Assembly (NCBI GenBank): GCA_963810275.1
Contig: CAWENF010000004.1
Coordinates: forward strand, 40,906-104,905
Source of the DNA: an uncultured archaeon
GTDB lineage: Archaea > Thermoproteota > Bathyarchaeia > Bathyarchaeales > Bathycorpusculaceae
DNA length: 64,000 nucleotides
Direction of reading: 5' to 3'
Below the pieces are notes generated by a model that did not search any database, was not told the origin of the DNA, and was given only the letters and a program-made list of their open reading frames with translations. The translations under genes and the position numbers were made by a program. Positions 35,350 through 63,293 of this stretch are shown one piece after another (the stretch's first letter is position 1; each line of letters begins with the position of its first letter).

Positions 35350-35571
35350 ATGTTTACTATAGGAGACTCTAGATTGGCTGGCGAATTCGAAAAACGAGTA
35401 AAAGAGCTAAAGCTTGACCCTAAATTCGAGAAAACAATTCTTGAAATGTTCAACGAAGCCTCTAACGAAGACCCTTGCATGAAATGCGGCTCAAAAGAAG
35501 GATGCGAGAACTTTAAGTGGCACAAAAAATATCTCAACACCGATCAATGCGGCTGCGAGTTCTGTCCATAG
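35350..35571 (+). CDS. Small Cys-rich hypothetical protein
   Basis: CMKC-x5-C and a terminal CGCEFC. A TATA-like CTTAAATA lies about 20 nt upstream, suggesting a leaderless transcript. Confidence 0.6.
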   Translation: MFTIGDSRLAGEFEKRVKELKLDPKFEKTILEMFNEASNEDPCMKCGSKEGCENFKWHKKYLNTDQCGCEFCP

Positions 35572-35719
35572 ACTCTAATTTTTCAAAAGTTTTAGCGTAA
35601 TCTCAATTATTGTTTCATTTTTTGGCTTTGAGCGCTTTATCGAGGTTTATATTTTTTGGTTTTCACCGACATAAAAGCCCCAGTTTATAGAAAGCATTTA
35701 AATGCTGCTCGAGCCGTTT

Positions 35720-35838
35720 AGCAAAGAATATCTACATGCGTTTGTACCTGAATCTACAGGGTGAACTCGCAAACCAAATCTGGGGAGATATGGTTTTGCT
35801 TGTCACTGTATGCAGCTTGGGTGTATAGGCTGTATGTG
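35720..35838 (+). promoter_or_regulatory. Structured 5' leader of citrate synthase (candidate cis-regulatory RNA)
   Basis: Follows BRE/TATA GAAAGCATTTAAA. Stems AGCAAAG/TTTTGCT, ATATCT/AGATAT, TGCG/CGCA, CCTG/CAGG and CCA/TGG, then ATGCAGCTTG/TAGGCTGTAT. Confidence 0.4.
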
Positions 35839-35846
35839 GAAGTGAA

Positions 35847-36986
35847 TTGACTATGTGTGAAAACAATGAAAAAGCAGTTATCCGCGGCTTAAGAGACGTC
35901 GCTGCGGCCGAAACAAGAATTAGTTTCGTAAACCCGAATGGGTCCCTTTACTATTTAGGCTACAACATAGATGACTTTGTTGGAAATGCCAAGTACTCCG
36001 AAATAGCGTATTTGCTTATACACCGGAAGCTGCCCAACGAACAGGAACTCATTGACTTCAGCGACCAACTTTTTAAAGAAATGCATTTACCAGAGGCTAT
36101 AGTTAAAAGCATTAAGAACACGCCCAAAAATTGTCACCCCATGGACGTGTTGCGCACCGAAGTTTCACATTTAGGTGAGTACGATCCAGACAACGGCGAC
36201 TACTCACAGGCAGCAAACCTGCGCCGAGCCATACGATTAGTTGCTCAGGTGCCCACGATTGTTGCTACACTTCACCGAACACGGCAGGGACTTCCTGTTC
36301 CTGAACCAAAAAAAGAGTTTGCATTCAGCCAAAACTTCCTTTATCTATTCAAAGGCTCAGAACCCGACGAAAAAGAAGAAAGCGTCATTCACCGCTACAT
36401 GATTCTTCACGCCGACCACGGCTTCAACGCCTCCACATTTGCTGCCCGTGTAACCGCAAGTACAAACTCTGATATGTACTCAGCCATAACCTCCGCTATC
36501 GGAACGCTTAAGGGGCCACTGCACGGGGGCGCAAGCGAGAAAGTCATGGATATGCTTGACGAAATAAACATTGAAGAAGAAGTCGAAGAGTACATTCAGG
36601 GCTTGTTGGATGAGAAAAAGAAAATAATGGGCTTCGGTCACCGCGTCTACAAAACCCAAGACCCTCGCACTAAGCACCTCAGACTCATAGTGGAGGACTT
36701 TGCTCATCGTGAACGCTCTTTGGGGTTGTACAACCGCTGTATGAAAATTGAGCAGCTGGTCTACGAGAAAAAACAGATTTACCCCAACGTGGACTTCTAC
36801 GCAGCTGTCGCAATGGACGCCCTAGACGTGCCAAAAACGTTCTTCCCGCTGTTCTTTGCGTCTAGCAGAATATCTGGCTGGGTAGCTCACGTGCTTGAGC
36901 AGTACGAAGATGCGGTGCTTCTGCGTCCACAGGGTCACTACGTCGGCGACTTCGAATGTAAGTTTATCCCAATCGAAGAACGCTAA
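35847..36986 (+). CDS. gltA: Citrate (Si)-synthase / 2-methylcitrate synthase family
   Basis: HADHGFNAST, GPLHGGA, MGFGHRVYK..DPR and YPNVDF motifs. Confidence 0.93.
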   Translation: MTMCENNEKAVIRGLRDVAAAETRISFVNPNGSLYYLGYNIDDFVGNAKYSEIAYLLIHRKLPNEQELIDFSDQLFKEMHLPEAIVKSIKNTPKNCHPMDVLRTEVSHLGEYDPDNGDYSQAANLRRAIRLVAQVPTIVATLHRTRQGLPVPEPKKEFAFSQNFLYLFKGSEPDEKEESVIHRYMILHADHGFNASTFAARVTASTNSDMYSAITSAIGTLKGPLHGGASEKVMDMLDEINIEEEVEEYIQGLLDEKKKIMGFGHRVYKTQDPRTKHLRLIVEDFAHRERSLGLYNRCMKIEQLVYEKKQIYPNVDFYAAVAMDALDVPKTFFPLFFASSRISGWVAHVLEQYEDAVLLRPQGHYVGDFECKFIPIEER

Positions 36987-54763: not shown

Positions 54764-57700
54764 GTGCCACTTATGACCCAACAACCAGAGTTCACCCCAT
54801 CTTCCTCTCCAGCCAAACGCGTCGACGATTGGAAATCAAGGCTCATCGACTTATCCCGAAGAAATAACCTGCTCTACTTTAAAAGTACCAGACGCAGCAA
54901 CCTTACAATCACACAACCAGACTCACAGAAAATCTTTGACGGTTTAGTCACCAAGAAACACCGTCTTGAATTTTATCTTCCACCTGAATCATCTGTTTTG
55001 GAGAAGGTGAAAAGAAAATCCCCTGTTCAGGCTAACGCAAAAACAAAGGGTGTGAAAGAGAGAACTAAAGAAAACGAAGCCATATCGGAACCTAAAGTGG
55101 CGAAGGCACTTGATAAAGCCGCCACCTCTGAGGAACCAGCATCTAAACCGGGCGGCGCAAACCAACTTTTCTGCGGCGGCATTTCCACTCAGGAACTTGA
55201 ACAGGCGCTGAAATCGCTTGAGCGGCGTTCCCTTTTGGATTACCGTGAACGCGGCGTGCGCATCCTATACGCAGCGTTTGGTGTATTGAACTGGGTGGAT
55301 GCGGAAACCAATGAGAAAGTGCAGTCACCACTGGTTTTAGTGCCTCTTGAACTTAGCAAAGAGTCCATCCGTTCACCATACAGCATAGCCGTGCCCCCTG
55401 TGGAGGATGAAGCCGTTCTGAACCCTGCGTTGGTGGCAAAACTCAGAAACGACTACAAAATTGATTTGCCACCGTTGCCTGAGGAGCGGGAAGTAACTAA
55501 ACTTGCTGATTACTATGCACTTGTGGATTCGGCGGTTGCTGAGATGGGTTGGAAAACAGAATCAGTCTCCAACGTGGGTTTGTTTAGCTTCCAAAAACTC
55601 GTAATATACAAGGATCTTGAAAGCAACGCGGCGCTTGTCACTTTGCACCCCATTATTCGAGCTATTGCAGGCATCAAAGAGGATAGCCTCATCGTCAATG
55701 GGTTACCTGACGAGCGTGATGTGGACAAAATTGAGACACCATCTAAAACTTATCATGTGCTCGACGCGGATAGCAGCCAGCGGGTCGCTATTGAATACGC
55801 CCTGCGTGGGCAGAGTTTTGTTATGCGCGGACCACCCGGCACTGGGAAAAGCCAGACAATCGCAAACATCATTGCTGAATGTATAGCCAACGGTAAATCC
55901 GTTCTGTTTGTGAGCGATAAGATGGCGGCCCTTGAAGTTGTTTACAAACGTCTAAACGAGGTTGGTTTGGCACATTTTTGTCTTGAGTTGCATAGCAGCA
56001 AAGCCAACAAGCAGGAAGTGGTGGCGGAGCTTAAACGCAGTCTCGACGAAAATCTCGTTCCCCGAAAGCTGCCATCAACTCACGAGTTTGACCGCTTAAC
56101 TGAGTACCGTGACAGCTTAAACGGATATGTTGCCGCATTGCATGATAAACGTCCCTACCTATTACAAAGCGTCTACGAGGTGCTAAGTATCATCTCGAGT
56201 CTTGAGCGGGCGCCGTTTGTACCCGTCGGTCTAAACGATCTAAAAACTTTGACCCCTCAAAAGATGCGTGAACTCGAAGAACTCGTCTCCTACCTAAGCA
56301 AAGTCTGGCCCGTCATCGAAGAAGAAGACTTCCCGTGGGTAGGCTACAAGGCGGATAAGTATAATCTTGAAATCCGAAGCGAACTCTTAACCAAGCTGGA
56401 AGCAGTAATCGCCACCGTTTGCGAACTTGAATACGAATGCGATGATTTCTCAGCGCAACTCGGAGTTTTGCCGCCTGAAAATTTCCAACGCATCCAGTGG
56501 CTGCATGACGTCAGCAATATGCTCTACGAAAGCCCCCGTCCTGAAGCGTACTGGTTAACCACATCCTCGCTTGACACGCTGCTGGCAGAGGCTAAGACGT
56601 ATCTTGAAACCGCCCAATGGATTAAAGCCGCCCGCTCCGATCTTGAAACCCGTTACAGCCCAAAGCTCTATGAACTAGAGCTTTCTAAATCCGCCGAATT
56701 ACAGCAGTCACTAAACGCTGCAAACCAAATTGTCGGCAGCGTCAACCTCTCCGAATCTGACTTTCTGCAAAAACGCAACTCCCTCTACCAATACATCAAA
56801 AACCTCCAGTTAACCTTCAAAAAATGGCGGGAAATCAGCACTGCATTGACTTCCATGCTGGGCCTTGACGGCTCAGACTTAAATGTCATCCAGCTTAAGC
56901 AGCTTTCACGCATGGCGCTTTTATGCTTCTCCGAGGAAAAACCTGAGGCAGAATGGTTTGACATAAAATACCTCAAGCAAGTAAAAGAAACAGTAGAGAA
57001 GGCACGCAACCTCTACCAAGAACACGGCTTACTCAAAAGCCGCCTAAACCAAACCTACACCTCGGGCATCTACGGGTTGCCACTTGACGAGTTAATTGCC
57101 AAATACAGCGGACCCTACCAAAGCGGTATAAAATTCTTCAACAGCGAATACCGGTCAGACCAAAAAAGCATATCCCAAGTTGCAAACGACGGCAAAGTCC
57201 CCAAAGAAGTCCTCCAAGACCTAATTGACGCCCGAAAAGTCAACAAGCTAGCGAAAAAAATCGCAGACTCAGCCGACACCGTAAAAACGTTGCTTGGACA
57301 CTACTACCATAAGAGCCGAACCGACTTTAATGGCGCTGAAAAAGCCATTACGTTGGTGGAGGAAATCTGTCGCCTTAACTGGGTAACCATCGTCCCCGAG
57401 CCATTTATAAAGCTGCTTACTTCACCTACGAGTCCGTCACCGATGATTAAGAATTTGGGGCAAGAACTCAAAAAATCCATCGAGAAGTGGGAGCAACAGA
57501 CACAAGAGATGGCTGCGCTGTTGCCTGAGAAACTGGCGAAGTCTAATAGGCAAATAGCCCAAACCGCGTTGCCGCTGGTTGAGGAGTGGGCTGGCGAAGT
57601 CGAAAAACAACTCTCTGCTCTTTGTGCGTTAACCAGCGAGTTGCTTGTCGTAGCAAAAGCCGAGCCCAAAAGCTACTGCCAATTCATAAATGACCTCAAA

Positions 57701-60469
57701 AACGCCGAAACTATCCGCAAAAAGGAAGCTCAAATCGTAGGCGAGAAAGCCCAACTTCAAGAAAAATATGGTGCCCGCTTCCGCGAGTTGGAAACCGATT
57801 GGCAAGACATCGTCACCGTGCTCGAGTGGTGCCAAAAAGTTCAAACAGCATTTACCGACATCCCCGTGCCAGAGGCTTACGCTGAAATCGCTGCCAAAGG
57901 CAAAGACGCTGCACCCCCAAACGTTGAACTGCAAAAACGCCGAGATGCCACTCTAAAAGTGCTTGCCGAATTTGAAACCCGCTTCGAATCCGAGGTGCGC
58001 TACCAAGGTATAGAGATAACCGAACTGGACATTCAAGTTATCGAGAAACGCATCCAGAGCCTCCGTGACAGAGTTGATGACTTGCAAGTTTGGATTGACT
58101 ACAAAGACATCAAAAACCGCTTCGCCCTCCGAGACTTAGAGCCATTTTTTGAGCGGCTTGTTGAGGCAAAATTGCCTGCGGCGGATTTGGTTTCGGTTTT
58201 CCGCAAAAGTGTCTACCAGGAATGGATAAACAACCTCTACACTGAGGATCAGAAACTCGGACGTTTTCGCAGAGAAACCCACGAGCAGCTAATCGCTGAC
58301 TTTAAGCGGCTTGACCAAGAATTGATACACTTAACCTTCGGCATGGTTATTGATGCCGCCAATAGACGCAAACCACAAGACATCCTCATACAAGCTGCAG
58401 ACGCCGAAGCAGGCATACTTAGCAAAGAAGCCGCCAAAAAACGTAGATTGATGCCTTTGCGTATGTTGTTCCAGAAAATACCCCATCTACTCGTCAAACT
58501 TAAACCCTGCCTACTTATGAGCCCCATCTCGGTAAGCCAATTCCTTCCAGCCGACATGAAATTCGACGTGGTACTCTTTGATGAAGCATCGCAGCTTGTG
58601 CCCGAGGACGCCATAAGCGCCATATACCGCGGCAGAACAATCGTCGTGGCAGGGGACAACAAACAGCTACCACCAACATCGTTCTTCCAAAAGAACCTTC
58701 TTGACGACATGGACTGGGACGAACTAAGCGACGAAGACATCGAAGTGTTTGACAGCATTCTAGACGAGTGCTTGGGCATTGGCTTACCCGTAAAAACATT
58801 GAAGTGGCACTATCGAAGCAAACACGAAGCTCTCATAGCTTTTAGTAACCAACAGTTCTACGACGGTACAATGATAACCTTCCCCGCCGCCAAAGCCCAA
58901 ACCGACAACTTAGGCGTGAAACTCGAATACGTACCAGATGCCATCTATGACCGCGGAGGAAAACGCGATAACCCCATCGAAGCCGAAAAAGTAGCAGACC
59001 TTGTGTTTGATCACTTCAAAAACACTCCTAAAAAGACACTTGGAGTAGTGACTTTCAGCGTTGCCCAGATGGACGCAGTACAAGAAACCATCGACCGTCG
59101 TCTCCAAGCCAACTCCGATTTTGCGCCTTTCTTCAAGGAAGACCGCTTAGAGGGCTTCTTTATCAAAAACCTCGAAAATGTGCAGGGCGACGAACGCGAT
59201 GTCATATTCTTCAGCGTAGGTTACGGTTATGACCAAAACAAGCAGATAACTATGAACTTCGGACCACTCAACAAACCTGGAGGAGAACGACGCTTAAACG
59301 TCGCTGTGACCCGCGCCCGAGAAAAAGTTGTCCTAATCACATCTATTAAAGGCTCAGACATAGACCCAGAAACCCAAGCAACAGGTGTGCAAACACTTCG
59401 GACATACCTTGACTACGCAGAGCACGGCGTAGACTGGCTAAAATCCTGTAAACCTAACGCCGCTTATGAATCCCAGCTTGATGAGGATGTGGCTGAGGAA
59501 ATCAAGAAACTTGGCTACGCTGTCGTACCCGAAGTAGGTTGCAGTGGATTCAAGATCGACATAGGCGTCGTGGACCCCACCAGTAAAGGAGACTTCCTGC
59601 TTGGCGTGGAATGTGACGGCTTCACATACCAGAACAGTAGCAGTGCCCGAGACCGAGACCGCCTCCGAGAGCAGGTTCTGCGACAGCTTGGTTGGCGTAT
59701 CCATCGTATCTGGGCACCAGCCTGGGTAGCTCGCAGAGACAGTGAAATCCGCCGCCTAAAAGAGGCACTTGAGCAGGCTAGTATCCAGCAAATAGTGAAA
59801 GACAGCCAAAAAGAATCTTCAGCACCCGATACAGATCTACAAAAAAACCAATACAGCGGCATCGAAAAACTGGGTGTCCCCTACAAAGTCCACCCGCTAA
59901 AAGCCATATATGATCCCTACATTAAAGTAACCAACGGCAGAACCACTGTGAACTCGAAGCAGAAAAACGAATTCCACTTCCCCAACAACCGAGAAAACCA
60001 AACCAAACTTCTTGCAGAACTCATCGAGAACGAAAGCCCAGTACATTTTGACTATGCCGTTGAACGACTAGCCCAAGCATGGAACATAAAAACTGTGACA
60101 CCCAAAATAAGCCGTGCCACCAGAGAAGCACTAAACAACCTCCTCCGCGAGCACAAAGTCAAAATCAAAGGCAGCTTCCTCTGGTCCGTTGGACTAAAAG
60201 AAGTACCCGTCCGCGTCCCTACCGCTGGACTGCCTGAATCCAAACGCAAACCGCAGTACATTCCAACTGAAGAAGTAGAAATGGCCATGCTTAAAGTTGC
60301 TCAGTATGCTCTTGGTATAAGTGAGGATTCGCTGGTTGCGGAGACCGCACGAGTCTTTGGCGTAAACCATGGCAGAGAAGATTCAAAAATTATTTTCTCA
60401 GAAGTGCTTAAGAGGCTGCTACGGGAGCGAAAGCTGATAAGCGTTGGCGGTGTGGTCGGCGTCGCTTAA
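54764..60469 (+). CDS. DUF4011 SF1 helicase with Vsr-like nuclease and DUF3320 (Hhe-like)
   Basis: WKSRLIDLSRRNNLL, GPPGTGKSQT, DEASQ, GDNKQLPP, HYRS, ENVQGDERD, RLNVAVTRAR, then FKIDIGV...GVECDG...RDRDRLR. Confidence 0.92.
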   Translation: MPLMTQQPEFTPSSSPAKRVDDWKSRLIDLSRRNNLLYFKSTRRSNLTITQPDSQKIFDGLVTKKHRLEFYLPPESSVLEKVKRKSPVQANAKTKGVKERTKENEAISEPKVAKALDKAATSEEPASKPGGANQLFCGGISTQELEQALKSLERRSLLDYRERGVRILYAAFGVLNWVDAETNEKVQSPLVLVPLELSKESIRSPYSIAVPPVEDEAVLNPALVAKLRNDYKIDLPPLPEEREVTKLADYYALVDSAVAEMGWKTESVSNVGLFSFQKLVIYKDLESNAALVTLHPIIRAIAGIKEDSLIVNGLPDERDVDKIETPSKTYHVLDADSSQRVAIEYALRGQSFVMRGPPGTGKSQTIANIIAECIANGKSVLFVSDKMAALEVVYKRLNEVGLAHFCLELHSSKANKQEVVAELKRSLDENLVPRKLPSTHEFDRLTEYRDSLNGYVAALHDKRPYLLQSVYEVLSIISSLERAPFVPVGLNDLKTLTPQKMRELEELVSYLSKVWPVIEEEDFPWVGYKADKYNLEIRSELLTKLEAVIATVCELEYECDDFSAQLGVLPPENFQRIQWLHDVSNMLYESPRPEAYWLTTSSLDTLLAEAKTYLETAQWIKAARSDLETRYSPKLYELELSKSAELQQSLNAANQIVGSVNLSESDFLQKRNSLYQYIKNLQLTFKKWREISTALTSMLGLDGSDLNVIQLKQLSRMALLCFSEEKPEAEWFDIKYLKQVKETVEKARNLYQEHGLLKSRLNQTYTSGIYGLPLDELIAKYSGPYQSGIKFFNSEYRSDQKSISQVANDGKVPKEVLQDLIDARKVNKLAKKIADSADTVKTLLGHYYHKSRTDFNGAEKAITLVEEICRLNWVTIVPEPFIKLLTSPTSPSPMIKNLGQELKKSIEKWEQQTQEMAALLPEKLAKSNRQIAQTALPLVEEWAGEVEKQLSALCALTSELLVVAKAEPKSYCQFINDLKNAETIRKKEAQIVGEKAQLQEKYGARFRELETDWQDIVTVLEWCQKVQTAFTDIPVPEAYAEIAAKGKDAAPPNVELQKRRDATLKVLAEFETRFESEVRYQGIEITELDIQVIEKRIQSLRDRVDDLQVWIDYKDIKNRFALRDLEPFFERLVEAKLPAADLVSVFRKSVYQEWINNLYTEDQKLGRFRRETHEQLIADFKRLDQELIHLTFGMVIDAANRRKPQDILIQAADAEAGILSKEAAKKRRLMPLRMLFQKIPHLLVKLKPCLLMSPISVSQFLPADMKFDVVLFDEASQLVPEDAISAIYRGRTIVVAGDNKQLPPTSFFQKNLLDDMDWDELSDEDIEVFDSILDECLGIGLPVKTLKWHYRSKHEALIAFSNQQFYDGTMITFPAAKAQTDNLGVKLEYVPDAIYDRGGKRDNPIEAEKVADLVFDHFKNTPKKTLGVVTFSVAQMDAVQETIDRRLQANSDFAPFFKEDRLEGFFIKNLENVQGDERDVIFFSVGYGYDQNKQITMNFGPLNKPGGERRLNVAVTRAREKVVLITSIKGSDIDPETQATGVQTLRTYLDYAEHGVDWLKSCKPNAAYESQLDEDVAEEIKKLGYAVVPEVGCSGFKIDIGVVDPTSKGDFLLGVECDGFTYQNSSSARDRDRLREQVLRQLGWRIHRIWAPAWVARRDSEIRRLKEALEQASIQQIVKDSQKESSAPDTDLQKNQYSGIEKLGVPYKVHPLKAIYDPYIKVTNGRTTVNSKQKNEFHFPNNRENQTKLLAELIENESPVHFDYAVERLAQAWNIKTVTPKISRATREALNNLLREHKVKIKGSFLWSVGLKEVPVRVPTAGLPESKRKPQYIPTEEVEMAMLKVAQYALGISEDSLVAETARVFGVNHGREDSKIIFSEVLKRLLRERKLISVGGVVGVA

Positions 60470-61244: not shown

Positions 61245-62217
61245 TTAACGCTTCAAAACTACCTTAAGAGCATGCCCGGATGGGTCTTCTATAGCGGCAA
61301 AGGCATCCTCGACGTCATAAAGGCTGAAGCGGTGCGTTATCAATCCAGCCACATCCACCTTCTTCTCCGCTATTAGCTGTACCGCTTGTGGATACTCCAA
61401 CGGCGAGATGTACATAGTGAAAAACTGCGCTTCATCTGCATCTTCCAAATTCAAAAAGCCCTTCGACTCACCGATAAGCGCTACCTTCCCCGTTTTACGC
61501 ACTAAAAATGGCGTTTGCTCCACAGTTTTTTGGGTTCCGGCGGCTTCCACCACAAAATCCGAGCCATACCCTGTGAGTTTGCGCACGGTTTTGGCTACGT
61601 CGGTGGCGTCTGCGTTTATGACTTCTTCTGCGCCGTATCTTTTGGCGTACTCTAACCTGTAGTCCTTAATGTCTACCGCTATGACTCGACAACCTTTCAG
61701 AACTGCCAATTGCGTCATCAACAACCCGATGGCGCCTTGCCCCACAACGGTAACCCAATCGCCCAAGTTTGGTTGGAGGTAGTTAAGAACACGCAACGCC
61801 AGCGCTACAGGTTCCACAACAGCCGCCTCCTCATCTGACACGCCAGCAGGCACAGGAATAAGGCTTCTCTGTTGGCATCGCTTTGTGTTCCACAAAAAAG
61901 CCGTCCCGCGTTAACCCGTAGAATTTGCCATTAATGCAGTACGTTGGGTGACCTTTGAGGCAGAAGATACAGTGTCCGCAATTAACAATCGGCACCATAA
62001 CCACCCGCTCGCCTGTGTCCGTTCTAATGCCGCATGCATCATGACCTATTATCCTACTTTTTTTCATCCATCGCCAGTCGTCGCGGTAAAAGTGCATGTC
62101 GGTGCCGCAGATGTTGCCCGCCAAAAAATCTACCAATATCTGTCCAATCTTAACCTTGGGTTCAGCTACGTCTTCGATTTTGATGTTGTGTGGTCCACGG
62201 TAAACGGCTGCCTTCAA
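61245..62217 (-). CDS. Zn-dependent medium-chain dehydrogenase (probable +1 error near 61872)
   Basis: ICGTD, GHD, structural Zn CGHCIFC...C, EP and GQGAIG motifs. Confidence 0.9.
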
Positions 62218-62312
62218 AACATTCGCCCACTTTATTGCAGTTGCCGGGCGGATTTATCTTTACTGTTTTTATTCTACGTAGACCTTAATACCCAAACTAA
62301 CAGGTGCACATC

Positions 62313-62543
62313 TTGAACGTAGAAACCTACAGTAAAGAGCAGCTTTGGAAGTTTCTTGTAGATTCAGTCCATGCCAGCGTAATGTACCCAACGCATAAAG
62401 CATATATAAGAGATACAATGTTGCCCCAACAACCCGACGTATCCGCATTAGAGTTGTCTGAGAGGTTGGGTATGCCACTGGGTGAAGCATTAGTAATTTT
62501 AGATGAACTGGAGCAGAATCAAAAATCAGCAACATTACAATAG
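62313..62543 (+). CDS. Small hypothetical protein with an HTH-like C-terminus
   Basis: AGGTG RBS before TTG 62313; SALELSERLGMPLGEALVIL. Confidence 0.65.
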   Translation: MNVETYSKEQLWKFLVDSVHASVMYPTHKAYIRDTMLPQQPDVSALELSERLGMPLGEALVILDELEQNQKSATLQ

Positions 62544-62571: not shown

Positions 62572-63129
62572 TTACTCGACCACGTAACGGTAAGTCACGT
62601 GCTCGCCTGCAGTTGTACTTTTACGGGTAATCTTTAGAACATCACCTGGCTGCGCGCCGATGGCTTTCACTGCTGGGTCGCCGCTGCGAATTTGAGGCAT
62701 TTGGTAGGGTTTAACCTTGAACTGGTTAAGTAACTCTTTCTTTTCTTTCTCGCTTATTATTTCGTGGAAGGGCACAAGAGCGTGCTCAAAGATATCAAAC
62801 ACTGGGAACGATTTGGGCAGCAATTCGACGTTTTTCTTTTTTGCGCCGAGTTTAACAGCGTGGGTATAGCGTCCTTCAGTGACGACTATGGCTCTTTCGA
62901 GTTCTTTTTCTTTCAACACCTTGTAGAGGGTGTTCATGGCGGCGATGCCCACGGTGGCTTCGCCAAGGATGCACCAAACAACGGCGCGTTCTTTGTCCTG
63001 TGGAATGTCAATGATGTAGGCGTATGCGCCTTCAAACTTTTCTTTTTCGACAAGCTTGTACTTTCTTAGTTTAATCAGAACTTCCGCTTTACGTTCTTCA
63101 ATTGTTAATAGTTTGTTAATAGTACTCAA
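62572..63129 (-). CDS. rpoH: RNA polymerase subunit Rpo5/RpoH with an RPB5-like N-terminal domain
   Basis: C-terminal HALVPFHEII...PQIRSGDP...GDVLKITRKSTTAG...YRYV, plus an N-terminal extension of about 110 aa. Confidence 0.93.
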   Translation of the reverse strand: MSTINKLLTIEERKAEVLIKLRKYKLVEKEKFEGAYAYIIDIPQDKERAVVWCILGEATVGIAAMNTLYKVLKEKELERAIVVTEGRYTHAVKLGAKKKNVELLPKSFPVFDIFEHALVPFHEIISEKEKKELLNQFKVKPYQMPQIRSGDPAVKAIGAQPGDVLKITRKSTTAGEHVTYRYVVE

Positions 63130-63293
63130 ACCACGTACCCTCAAGATAGAATACGGAACCTAAAACAAGTATTTACCCCTTAAACTTTTCTCTTATAAAA
63201 GAAGCTGAAAACAACAAAAATCGAGTTTTAACAGCAAAAAACATTTTACATCAGACCTGCACAGCTAAACAACCTTTTGAGGCGGCGGCTGAT

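Follow-up and report, generated by a model that had tools for sequence, protein, structure and literature searches.

Bathyarchaeia DNA analysed here as a single window (the whole stretch of 64,000 nucleotides) carries a gene for a long, two-domain form of the RNA polymerase subunit Rpo5 (RpoH), the homologue of eukaryotic Rpb5. The reading that best explains the evidence as a whole, and one that we consider probable, is that the sole Rpo5 of this genome is built from the usual C-terminal assembly domain and an N-terminal domain that is a probable archaeal counterpart or homologue of the Rpb5 jaw module. The gene, its two domains and the elements preceding it are as follows.

62572..63129, minus strand: rpoH/rpo5 gene, long form, 185 codons plus stop (open reading frame, Pfam, NCBIfam, sole genome-wide match to PF01191)
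62800..63129, minus strand: N-terminal domain, residues 1-110, inactive Mrr-type PD-(D/E)XK fold, proposed jaw or guard-rail module
62575..62799, minus strand: C-terminal assembly domain, residues 111-185, canonical RpoH/Rpb5_C (PF01191, NF007129, 8cro_H)
63138..63142, minus strand: GAGGG, Shine-Dalgarno-like, 8 nt before the TTG start, putative in function
63178..63188, minus strand: AAAGTTTAAGG, candidate BRE/TATA element of the gene's own promoter, with columns invariant in eight of eight upstream regions

An archaeal RpoH with a jaw-like domain runs counter to published papers, which deny such a domain to archaea. In the available text of Wojtas et al. 2012, Rpb5-N is given as "absent from archaea", and Rpo13 is suggested to be a fossil that was supplanted when Rpb5-N appeared in eukaryotes. 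Likewise, RpoH is without an N-terminal extension in the available part of PMC3906176, and the corresponding excerpt of a PD-(D/E)XK superfamily survey gives the domain for Eukaryota only. The preliminary description of this DNA, made from the sequence, had allowed that long forms might already be reported in archaea, a surmise that found no backing, as no description of a long archaeal RpoH/Rpo5 was found in the openly accessible articles searched.

The 185-residue reading is a single uninterrupted frame with its stop codon at 62572-62574, and two TTG codons, at 63129 (185 aa) and at 63144 (190 aa), are alternative starts. The TTG at 63129 is the better candidate because a TTG is invariant there in eight aligned upstream regions from three families, because both GAGGG and the invariant AAAGTTTAAGG precede it, and because many database homologues begin with MST... 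at the same point. The TGAGG block around GAGGG is largely conserved in the eight regions. The element AAAGTTTAAGG, which presumably corresponds to the archaeal TATA consensus and lies ~50 nt before the start, is likely the BRE/TATA element of the rpoH promoter, with transcription predicted to begin ~25 nt beyond it; for a second TTTTATAA at 63193-63200, conservation was not found among the eight aligned regions. With upstream elements of its own, the long rpoH is likely a separate transcription unit, apart from rpoB.

The C-terminal domain is that of an ordinary archaeal Rpo5. Residues 111-183 match Rpb5_C (PF01191) in Pfam with an E-value of 7.7e-30 (102.9 bits against a cut-off of 23.5), residues 111-185 match the RpoH equivalog NF007129 in NCBIfam (E 1e-30, 105.3 bits against a cut-off of 83), and a PDB sequence search matches Pyrococcus Rpo5 8cro_H at E 4.9e-24. 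In Foldseek, the C-terminal 75 residues are alike in the long form and in canonical archaeal RpoH/Rpo5 (8cro_H, 4qiw_H, 7ok0_H), with 54-59% identity, whereas the long form has 110 further residues at its N-terminus and its gene is not the first of an rpoH-rpoB-rpoA cluster. Since the solved archaeal Rpo5 chains, which are 77-84 aa long, match residues 110-185 only, these 110 N-terminal residues are extra. Two statements of the preliminary description, that a typical archaeal Rpo5 has about 75-85 aa and that the present one is a 185-aa Rpo5 with an additional N-terminal domain containing ATVGIAAMNTLYKVLKEKELERAIVVTEGRYTHAVK (residues 58-93 of this reading), are therefore upheld.

Across 21 aligned long forms, H116, D151 and R181 are invariant, and P120 and R169 are nearly so. 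In the portion of Zaros et al. available, the critical contacts with yeast Rpb1 are H147, P151, D182, R200 and R212, which fall on H116, P120, D151, R169 and R181 at a constant offset of 31, the correspondence being mapped by this offset rather than taken from a printed alignment. The C-terminal 75 residues are the usual assembly domain, which would anchor Rpo5 to Rpo1, the largest subunit. A genome-wide PF01191 search found no other Rpb5_C-encoding gene in the 2.26-Mb assembly, which is 92.6% complete, and it is from being the only such gene that the protein can be taken as the RNA polymerase subunit of this genome.

The two-domain arrangement is not due to chance: of the 151 Bathyarchaeia genomes sampled, 85 have kept the gene in this form. 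The length of the gene could alternatively come from two adjacent genes having been joined by mis-calling or mis-assembly, an account for which no supporting evidence was found and whose probability we regard as negligible: the frame is uninterrupted in the window, the same form recurs in those 85 genomes, including the single-contig G040, G014 and G170, and the linker joining the domains is conserved (E102, L103, P105). A protein search retrieved 1302 database proteins at E <= 0.001, with identities of 87-97% among the 120 matches listed.

The N-terminal domain is, as judged from sequence comparison and predicted structure, a catalytically dead Mrr-type PD-(D/E)XK fold. The predicted models are confident (pLDDT 90.3 for the whole protein, the model used for the whole-protein match to RPB5 described below, and 93.4), and they give the N-domain an alpha-beta-beta-beta-alpha-beta-alpha-beta topology. 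In Pfam, residues 23-104 match both Mrr_cat (PF04471; E 9.6e-6, 26.1 bits against a cut-off of 21) and, marginally, NA-iREase1 (PF22722; E 2.3e-6, 28 bits against a cut-off of 27). The catalytic (D/E/Q)xK motif expected in strand beta3 is found in none of 27 aligned homologues, the window sequence at this place being VVWCIL, and the acidic position that should precede the motif is not conserved in the 27 rows. Furthermore, the QAK of a genuine Mrr nuclease aligns with the W/x-C-I positions in hhalign. Compared with Mrr-type domains (PF04471; AF1548, 1y88; the C-domain of NucS/EndoMS), the archaeal N-domain thus has the same fold, yet it lacks the catalytic motif and is fused to a polymerase subunit.

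Above-cut-off matching to Mrr_cat, and the occurrence of NA-iREase1 domains in immunity proteins noted in the Pfam family description, might suggest that the polymerase carries, in the N-domain, an active nuclease or a sensor used in defence. This is highly improbable given the missing catalytic residues, and no NACHT or other immunity or defence domain was found in the protein with Pfam. In addition, the protein is encoded by the only rpoH of the genome and is conserved family-wide, which fits a housekeeping role.

Several comparisons instead connect this inactive domain with eukaryotic Rpb5. The best PDB match of the whole model is eukaryotic RPB5 8uhd_E (E 3e-15, TMq 0.78, rmsd 2.8, 206 columns), to be set against archaeal Rpo5 chains, which align with the model over 75 columns only. 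In a full-length phmmer search of the PDB, the alignments to eukaryotic chains likewise take in part of the N-domain, pairing query residues 47-57 to 183 with chain residues 68-209. The eukaryotic architecture proposed in the preliminary description, a restriction-endonuclease-fold domain N-terminal to Rpb5_C, is accordingly seen in the whole protein, and a structural match to RPB5-N, on which that proposal had staked itself, is present: in VIA-align, the N-domain alone aligns with human RPB5 at Z 10.1, over 101 of 106 residues (model 1-106 against chain 4-137). Rpb5/RPABC1, which is common to Pol I, II and III in eukaryotes (PF03871 plus PF01191; 8uhd_E, 7vba_E, 1dzf), has the same domain order, a dead PD-(D/E)XK domain followed by Rpb5_C. 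It differs in that the archaeal N-domain has ~105 residues as compared with ~137 in the eukaryotic module (~30 fewer), is without a match to PF03871 and scores with Mrr_cat, and serves a single polymerase, its function being putative.

At the level of sequence, a clean N-domain profile rebuilt from 27 rows (A5) retrieves RPB5 as its top seven PDB matches, all in one register and with E-values from 3.1e-5 to 0.0047 (fly 3.1e-5, human 0.0029, Arabidopsis 0.0036). RPB5 alone lies below E 0.1, the next match other than RPB5 being at E 0.15, and neither of the solved Mrr-like structures, 1y88 and MspJI, is among the A5 matches below E 0.1. An earlier profile (A2), in which 15 rows were RpoH N-domains and the sixteenth was a paralogue (L022 from G032), had reached RPB5 at 4.5e-4. 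GrYTqsAK is aligned with G(g/q)mTPSAK when the profiles are compared with RPB5, and few other parts of the N-domain are as well conserved as this block, which is paired with the TPSAK loop of eukaryotes. The TPSAK and DRGY regions of eukaryotic Rpb5 align with the archaeal G-x-x-T-x-x-A-K block and with an invariant arginine ending helix 1, respectively; this R22 is the only residue of the DRGY motif that is invariant in the 27 rows, and Y24 is replaced in several families.

Other comparisons are less selective. In structure, the true nucleases EndoMS (Z 10.5) and AF1548 (Z 10.4) tie with RPB5, and Foldseek of the N-domain places EndoMS and MspJI first. The two family models named in the preliminary description gave a divided answer, as Mrr_cat matched all 16 rows of A2 (best 2.8e-12), while RNA_pol_Rpb5_N (PF03871) matched none of them at E <= 1 and left the window protein unmatched as well. 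PF03871 is a weak detector, however, its best score among 16 viral two-domain RPB5 homologues being 4.8e-5 (one of 16), under its own cut-off. A single-sequence phmmer search of the PDB with the N-domain alone returned no RPB5 at E <= 10 and chance-level matches only (cellobiose epimerase, 0.09). With hhalign, a giant-virus-type two-domain RPB5 that is itself a weak PF03871 match aligned at 67-70% probability (E 4-5e-5), with RGY pairing with RgY in one alignment, and two of three viral comparators gave no alignment. The hhalign match to a genuine Mrr nuclease was stronger than that to viral RPB5 (94%, E 1e-7), and the match of A5 to a Bathyarchaeia paralogue was the strongest of all (97.5%, E 5e-12). 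As a lead only, a comparison by language-model features places residues 1-110 nearest, among named ESM Atlas clusters, to clusters with PF03871 (score 0.86, 176 features in common). Because the sequence profile favours RPB5 while structure ties with nucleases and PF03871 fails, we consider homology of the N-domain with the Rpb5 jaw likely rather than proven. Two-domain lengths (178-225 aa) with a C-terminal Rpb5_C are also seen in 14 of 16 RPB5 homologues of giant viruses (Nucleocytoviricota-type, IMG/VR), though these are much more diverged and viral rather than cellular.

The paralogue represents a second protein family in which the same type of N-domain precedes an unrelated Cys-rich C-terminus. 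The present genome carries a member at G000:C11:25484-25786; seven or more further genomes of the order also have the family, as does a single genome from a different class. It could therefore be argued that a circulating inactive Mrr-like module was fused to RpoH independently within archaea, so that the likeness to Rpb5 reflects a common Mrr_cat stock and the eukaryotic jaw arose separately. The paralogue being the closest hhalign relative, the far better match to Mrr_cat than to PF03871 and the structural tie with true nucleases all speak for such an origin, but it would leave unexplained that domain order and spacing are identical to those of Rpb5, that both domains superpose on RPB5 at once, that RPB5 sequences alone fall under the profile threshold, and that N-domain and RPB5 have the G-x-x-T-x-x-A-K block in common. 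On balance, we find an independent fusion fairly unlikely.

The distribution of the long form bears on the same question. Among the 151 Bathyarchaeia genomes sampled, the long form occurs in 85 and the short form in 60, with a split by family, and the long form was not found in the sampled genomes of other Thermoproteota classes; this patchiness favours an independent fusion. In the tree of the C-domain, the long forms do not all group together, families f20 plus f22 and f15 being placed among short forms, and an AU test speaks against a single long-form clade (p 0.032, 75 columns). The AU result is a point on the side of independent fusion and, taken with the tree, is compatible with repeated fusion or with recombination. 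The two forms also differ in genomic setting: the short rpoH adjoins rpoB in five of five Bathyarchaeia genomes, and the long rpoH does so in none of ten genomes nor in the present one, where rpoB is 67 kb away. An 83-aa open reading frame upstream of rpoB, at the usual site of rpoH, was rejected as spurious for its odd composition and lack of a Pfam match. Likewise rejected was a 392-aa frame in G324 as a long form outside the class, this being a GC-rich open frame around a normal ~85-aa gene adjoining rpoB. Many of the 38 proteins that a representative-protein search with the N-domain gave at E <= 0.001 are fragments; P0133, P0145 and P0146 are full-size with unrelated C-termini (alignment A1) and were left out of alignment A3. 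Elsewhere, the match counted for G032 is the paralogue L022, and that for G007 is a 25-residue fragment at a contig end.

Returning to homology with the Rpb5 jaw, the split between a short form in the rpoB operon and a long form elsewhere, together with the presence of the module in a second family, provides a concrete evolutionary scenario, which we put forward tentatively. The two-part Rpb5 may have been invented in archaea when an inactive Mrr-like module joined a copy of rpoH located outside the rpoH-rpoB-rpoA operon, after which the operon copy was displaced and the eukaryotic jaw descended from the resulting protein. If the matching domain is truly the same, the origin of one more eukaryote-specific part of the polymerase moves into archaea, and the Bathyarchaeia protein would be related to the eukaryotic lower jaw while being shorter and less derived than it, and would be open to reconstitution and biochemistry.

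As to function, in the favoured reading the N-terminal 110 residues would project at the lower jaw, next to the channel for downstream DNA, and would serve there as a guard rail without catalysis or as a surface for docking. As described in the text available from Wojtas et al. 2012, Rpb5-N is a guard rail for downstream DNA, Rpo13 of Sulfolobales sits beside Rpo5 where eukaryotic Rpb5-N sits, and some filler of the Rpo5/Rpo1N void is predicted for other archaea. The N-domain may fill this void, which is taken by Rpo13 in Sulfolobus and by Rpb5-N in eukaryotes, although Rpo13 is an unrelated small helical subunit that is separately encoded. A search for Rpo13 (PF12136) gave no match in this genome, and the positive control in Sulfolobus was matched. 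The suggestion in the preliminary description that this polymerase has the lower jaw is supported as regards the fold and the RPB5-first profile, its action as a jaw being putative.

The same homology might nevertheless serve another purpose, with the N-domain mainly docking initiation or elongation factors or an assembly chaperone rather than guiding DNA. For example, the partners of eukaryotic Rpb5-N in the papers, as far as their available text goes, include TFIIB, RAP30, TIP120, HBx and Bud27/URI, and the available text of Zaros et al. reports that the DNA-facing prolines P86 and P118 of yeast are dispensable. Net charge of the N-domain ranges from -2 to +14, with values close to zero or below it in several lineages, which would also agree with docking. 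We nonetheless regard docking as the main role as unlikely, since any partner of the archaeal N-domain is hypothetical here and the block aligned with TPSAK is so well conserved, and a guard rail along the DNA would be in keeping with the N-domains of 22 of 25 long forms being basic.

The rpoH (rpo5) gene of the window encodes a two-domain protein, as the preliminary description had proposed, and its interpretation of a eukaryote-like, Rpb5-like RpoH in an archaeon was essentially right; the N-terminal string that it quoted lies at residues 58-93 of the translated open reading frame (ORF). The finding is real and represents a variant of a known subunit, in which an archaeal RpoH bears a dead nuclease fold resembling the Rpb5 jaw. 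The C-terminal domain was recognized as Rpb5_C by Pfam (residues 111-183, E 7.7e-30) and as the RpoH equivalog by NCBIfam (residues 111-185, 1e-30). Residues 23-104 matched two restriction-endonuclease-type families, NA-iREase1 (2.3e-6) and Mrr_cat (9.6e-6), and the Pfam scan gave no Rpb5_N match in the protein. Archaeal Rpo5 chains in the PDB are 77-84 aa long and match residues 110-185 only, and alignments to eukaryotic RPB5 chains begin at query residue 47-57 and run onward. An AlphaFold2 model built on a 21-row alignment was confident (pLDDT 90.3), displaying the usual C-domain and an N-domain of alpha-beta-beta-beta-alpha-beta-alpha-beta topology, and the N-domain modelled alone adopted the same fold (pLDDT 93.4).

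The minus-strand ORF ends at 62572 and has two possible starts, TTG 63144 (190 aa) and TTG 63129 (185 aa). From the sequence comparison, we take TTG 63129 as the probable start, as this TTG is invariant when eight upstream regions, taken from three families within the order, are aligned, blocks upstream of it are conserved, and many database homologues begin with MST... at this position. The two blocks in this alignment are:
63138-63142, minus strand: GAGGG, from a largely conserved TGAGG block ahead of the TTG; putative ribosome site by position and consensus.
63178-63188, minus strand: AAAGTTTAAGG, invariant, farther upstream; looks like a BRE/TATA element, with a candidate promoter role by position and consensus.

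In the PDB, the whole model matched eukaryotic RPB5 chains best, and both domains superposed at once (8uhd_E: E 3e-15, TMq 0.78, rmsd 2.8, 206 columns); archaeal Rpo5 chains gave TMq 0.39 over 75 columns. A profile of the N-domain only, made from a clean alignment of 27 long (two-domain) forms, ranked seven RPB5 sequences above all other PDB entries, including fly (3.1e-5), human (0.0029) and Arabidopsis (0.0036), with the first unrelated protein at 0.15; one register was common to all, placing profile positions 29-90 against chain positions 56-117. An earlier profile from a first, 16-row alignment had reached RPB5 at 4.5e-4, and a single-sequence search of the PDB with the N-domain found no RPB5. 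In the profile alignments, the conserved archaeal G-R-Y-T-x-x-A-K stands opposite G-x-m-T-P-S-A-K of RPB5, and a second, weak aligned segment sets human hdRGY opposite archaeal L-R-x-Y. In the accessible text of Zaros et al., the DRGY motif of helix 1 is described as invariant in Rpb5, and R26E as lethal in yeast. VIA-align placed 101 of 106 N-domain residues on residues 4-137 of human RPB5 (Z 10.1), and the ESM Atlas clusters nearest to query residues 1-110 carry PF03871 (Rpb5_N; 0.86, 176 shared features), which is a lead and not a test.

Other comparisons speak against a specific match to the Rpb5 jaw. The structural match is a tie, with EndoMS at Z 10.5 and AF1548 at Z 10.4, and Foldseek ranked EndoMS and MspJI just ahead of RPB5. 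The structural match to RPB5-N, the absence of which would have counted against the preliminary description, was obtained. Of the two families named in the preliminary description, Mrr_cat matched all 16 rows of the first alignment (15 N-domains and one paralogue from genome G032) and PF03871 none; this silence weighs little, because PF03871 is a short model of 89 positions that found 1 of 16 viral two-domain homologues, that one below cut-off. In favor of the Rpb5 link, hhalign aligned one two-domain viral RPB5, itself a weak PF03871 match, with 67-70% probability. Two of the three viral comparators tried gave no alignment, and a real Mrr nuclease (94%) and a Cys-rich paralogue (97.5%, E 5e-12) scored higher. 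In addition, the archaeal N-domain is ~30 residues shorter than eukaryotic Rpb5-N. We read it as an inactivated Mrr-type fold that occupies an intermediate place, with free Mrr domains on one side and eukaryotic Rpb5-N, which is more derived, on the other. The N-domain is likely, though not conclusively, a specific homologue of Rpb5-N, and there is a good chance that the fused form shares common descent with eukaryotic Rpb5.

Judged by its residues, the N-domain is a dead nuclease fold. Strand beta3 carries (D/E/Q)xK in none of the 27 rows of the clean alignment (VVWCIL in the window protein), and the acidic position closing beta2 is D, E, K, G or S. A genuine Mrr nuclease (Mrr_cat 1.6e-32), aligned by hhalign, has its QAK on positions of the VVWCIL strand.

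Subtracting 31 from the positions of yeast H147, P151, D182, R200 and R212, reported as Rpb1 contacts in the available part of Zaros et al., gives H116, P120, D151, R169 and R181 of the C-domain, all of which are invariant or nearly so. As these contact residues are kept, the subunit should dock on Rpo1 through its C-domain as in canonical RpoH. By analogy with Pol II, the N-domain would then stand at the place of Rpb5-N, where it may contact DNA and possibly bind a partner. This place, taken by Rpo13 in Sulfolobus, serves downstream DNA as a guard rail according to Wojtas et al. (PMC3479171, as far as its accessible text goes), who predicted analogous fillers for other archaea. No Rpo13 match was found in this genome, while the control matched in Sulfolobus. 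The N-domain is basic in 22 of 25 long forms. Its role as a jaw or guard rail is a proposal.

The 2.26-Mb assembly (28 contigs, 92.6% complete) holds a single Rpb5_C match. N-domains with 84-97% identity were found at 80 loci, mostly of Candidatus Bathyarchaeia or Bathyarchaeota and Ca. Bathycorpusculum. The N-domain query matched 35 of 41 relatives, and inspection showed both domains at 18 loci, drawn from the genus and also from further families within the order; the matches in G032 and G007 were rejected as a paralogue and a fragment at a contig end, respectively. Across 151 Bathyarchaeia genomes at least 80% complete, a full-length profile matched 147 and gave no match in four. The long form, matching over both domains, was found in 85 of the 147, comprising all 40 genomes of the window's order and members of families f15, f18, f20, f21, f22, f24 (31 of 33 genomes), f31 and f33. 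Sixty matches were short forms, covering profile positions ~100-181 only in open frames of 84-146 aa from 16 other families, one of them being cut by a contig end and two classed by E-value only; the matches in G073 and G164 were not assignable to either class.

Searching 333 Thermoproteota genomes outside the class with the N-domain profile gave matches in 11 at E <= 1e-5. Two were examined and rejected, G250 being the paralogue and G467 a true Mrr nuclease; the other nine matches fall within open frames 162-693 aa long, and a separate short rpoH is present in G250 and four of these nine genomes. A PF01191 (Rpb5_C) survey covered 161 genomes, 137 of them outside the class (135 matched). Among the 150 matches listed, frames of 180-217 aa occurred 20 times, always in the window's order, and frames outside the class measured 80-147 aa, with one exception of 392 aa, rejected as a GC-rich open frame that encloses a short gene of the normal kind next to rpoB. 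One outside-class row equals the Sulfolobus acidocaldarius chain over the shared part, so the sample reaches Thermoprotei.

In some Bathyarchaeia, complete rpoH genes of the two-domain type are present in two or three copies, as in G033 (C58:5988-6524 and C48:16413-16940) and G105 (three places). In G150 (C43:7567-8199), a single open frame of 232 aa is matched in two pieces 78 bases apart, pointing to an insertion close to the linker. The rank-2 ESM Atlas cluster (score 0.98 against the window protein) consists of "RpoH family" proteins of 195 aa, of which 100% carry Rpb5_C and 90% Mrr_cat. It is labelled 67% Viruses (Nucleocytoviricota), although just 3 members have a known phylum; either giant viruses possess a long form of archaeal type, or the contigs may be mislabelled.

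The literature searched, with subscription journals and supplements outside its scope, yielded no account of an archaeal RpoH of the long type. In their accessible portions, published accounts describe RpoH as lacking an N-terminal extension (PMC3906176), state that the Rpb5 N-terminal domain is absent from archaea (PMC3479171) and enter Rpb5-N as Eukaryota in a table (PMC3424549). The available part of a 2026 paper on archaeal small subunits deals with Rpo6 and Rpo8, and models a Bathyarchaeota Rpo5 there without remark on its length. The long Bathyarchaeia RpoH contradicts such explicit statements on archaea, as worded in the text available.

In a C-domain tree (53 rows, 75 columns), one group united 22 of the 25 long forms (support 89/85, not starred), the f20 and f22 long forms fell within a well-supported short-form clade, and f15 branched elsewhere. 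Constraining all long forms together cost 6.3 log-likelihood units (AU p 0.032, weak at 75 columns), and these sequences leave room for more than one fusion, or recombination. The module is not confined to RpoH, as the paralogue family joins a closely related N-domain to a Cys-rich C-terminal region of ~85 aa with the conserved pattern LCKxKCG...KESDCKG...FHFE.GW (frames 178-218 aa). It is found in this genome outside the window (G000:C11:25484-25786; locus L124:2982-3515), in seven other examined genomes of the order and in one of another class (further loci L125, L127-L133 and L022). Its only Pfam matches are weak ones to Mrr_cat, and no relative of solved structure was found by sequence. 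Three representative proteins (P0133, P0145 and P0146) also have a related N-domain, with C-termini not alignable with Rpb5_C; they may be frameshifted calls, chimeras or additional fusions.

On the contig, rpoB (35557-36675) and rpoH (103480-104034) are 67 kb apart, and the slot ahead of rpoB holds a methyltransferase gene and a ~400-nt gap, in which an ORF was judged spurious. Five short-form genomes have rpoH directly upstream of rpoB: the two share a strand, and the end of rpoH precedes the Rpb2_6 domain by ~2 kb. In ten long-form genomes from seven families, rpoH lies 233-950 kb from rpoB in the three single-contig genomes and on a different contig in the other seven; the contig leaves room for rpoB in the six for which this was judged, the seventh being G161. 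Possession of the long form thus goes with relocation of the gene outside the operon. Within the window, rpoH is flanked by a gene for an F420-dependent NADP oxidoreductase on one side and by unrelated genes, including a HAD hydrolase, on the other. Features nearby are:
54764-60469, plus strand: 1901-aa helicase with DUF4011, AAA_11/AAA_12, an MTES_1575 restriction-endonuclease-like domain and DUF3320.
61245-62217, minus strand: split zinc-type alcohol dehydrogenase in two overlapping ORFs (ADH_N 61831-62217, ADH_zinc_N 61245-61895), which may reflect a frameshift, a pseudogene or a sequencing error.
62304-62543, plus strand: 79-aa ORF convergent with rpoH, 29 bases from its stop, with no Pfam match.

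Finally, rpoA (Rpo1), described in the source text available as split into A' and A'' in many archaea, is here an unsplit 1278-aa ORF directly after rpoB and just before the window start (G000:C4:36971-40807; locus L175:472-4308).
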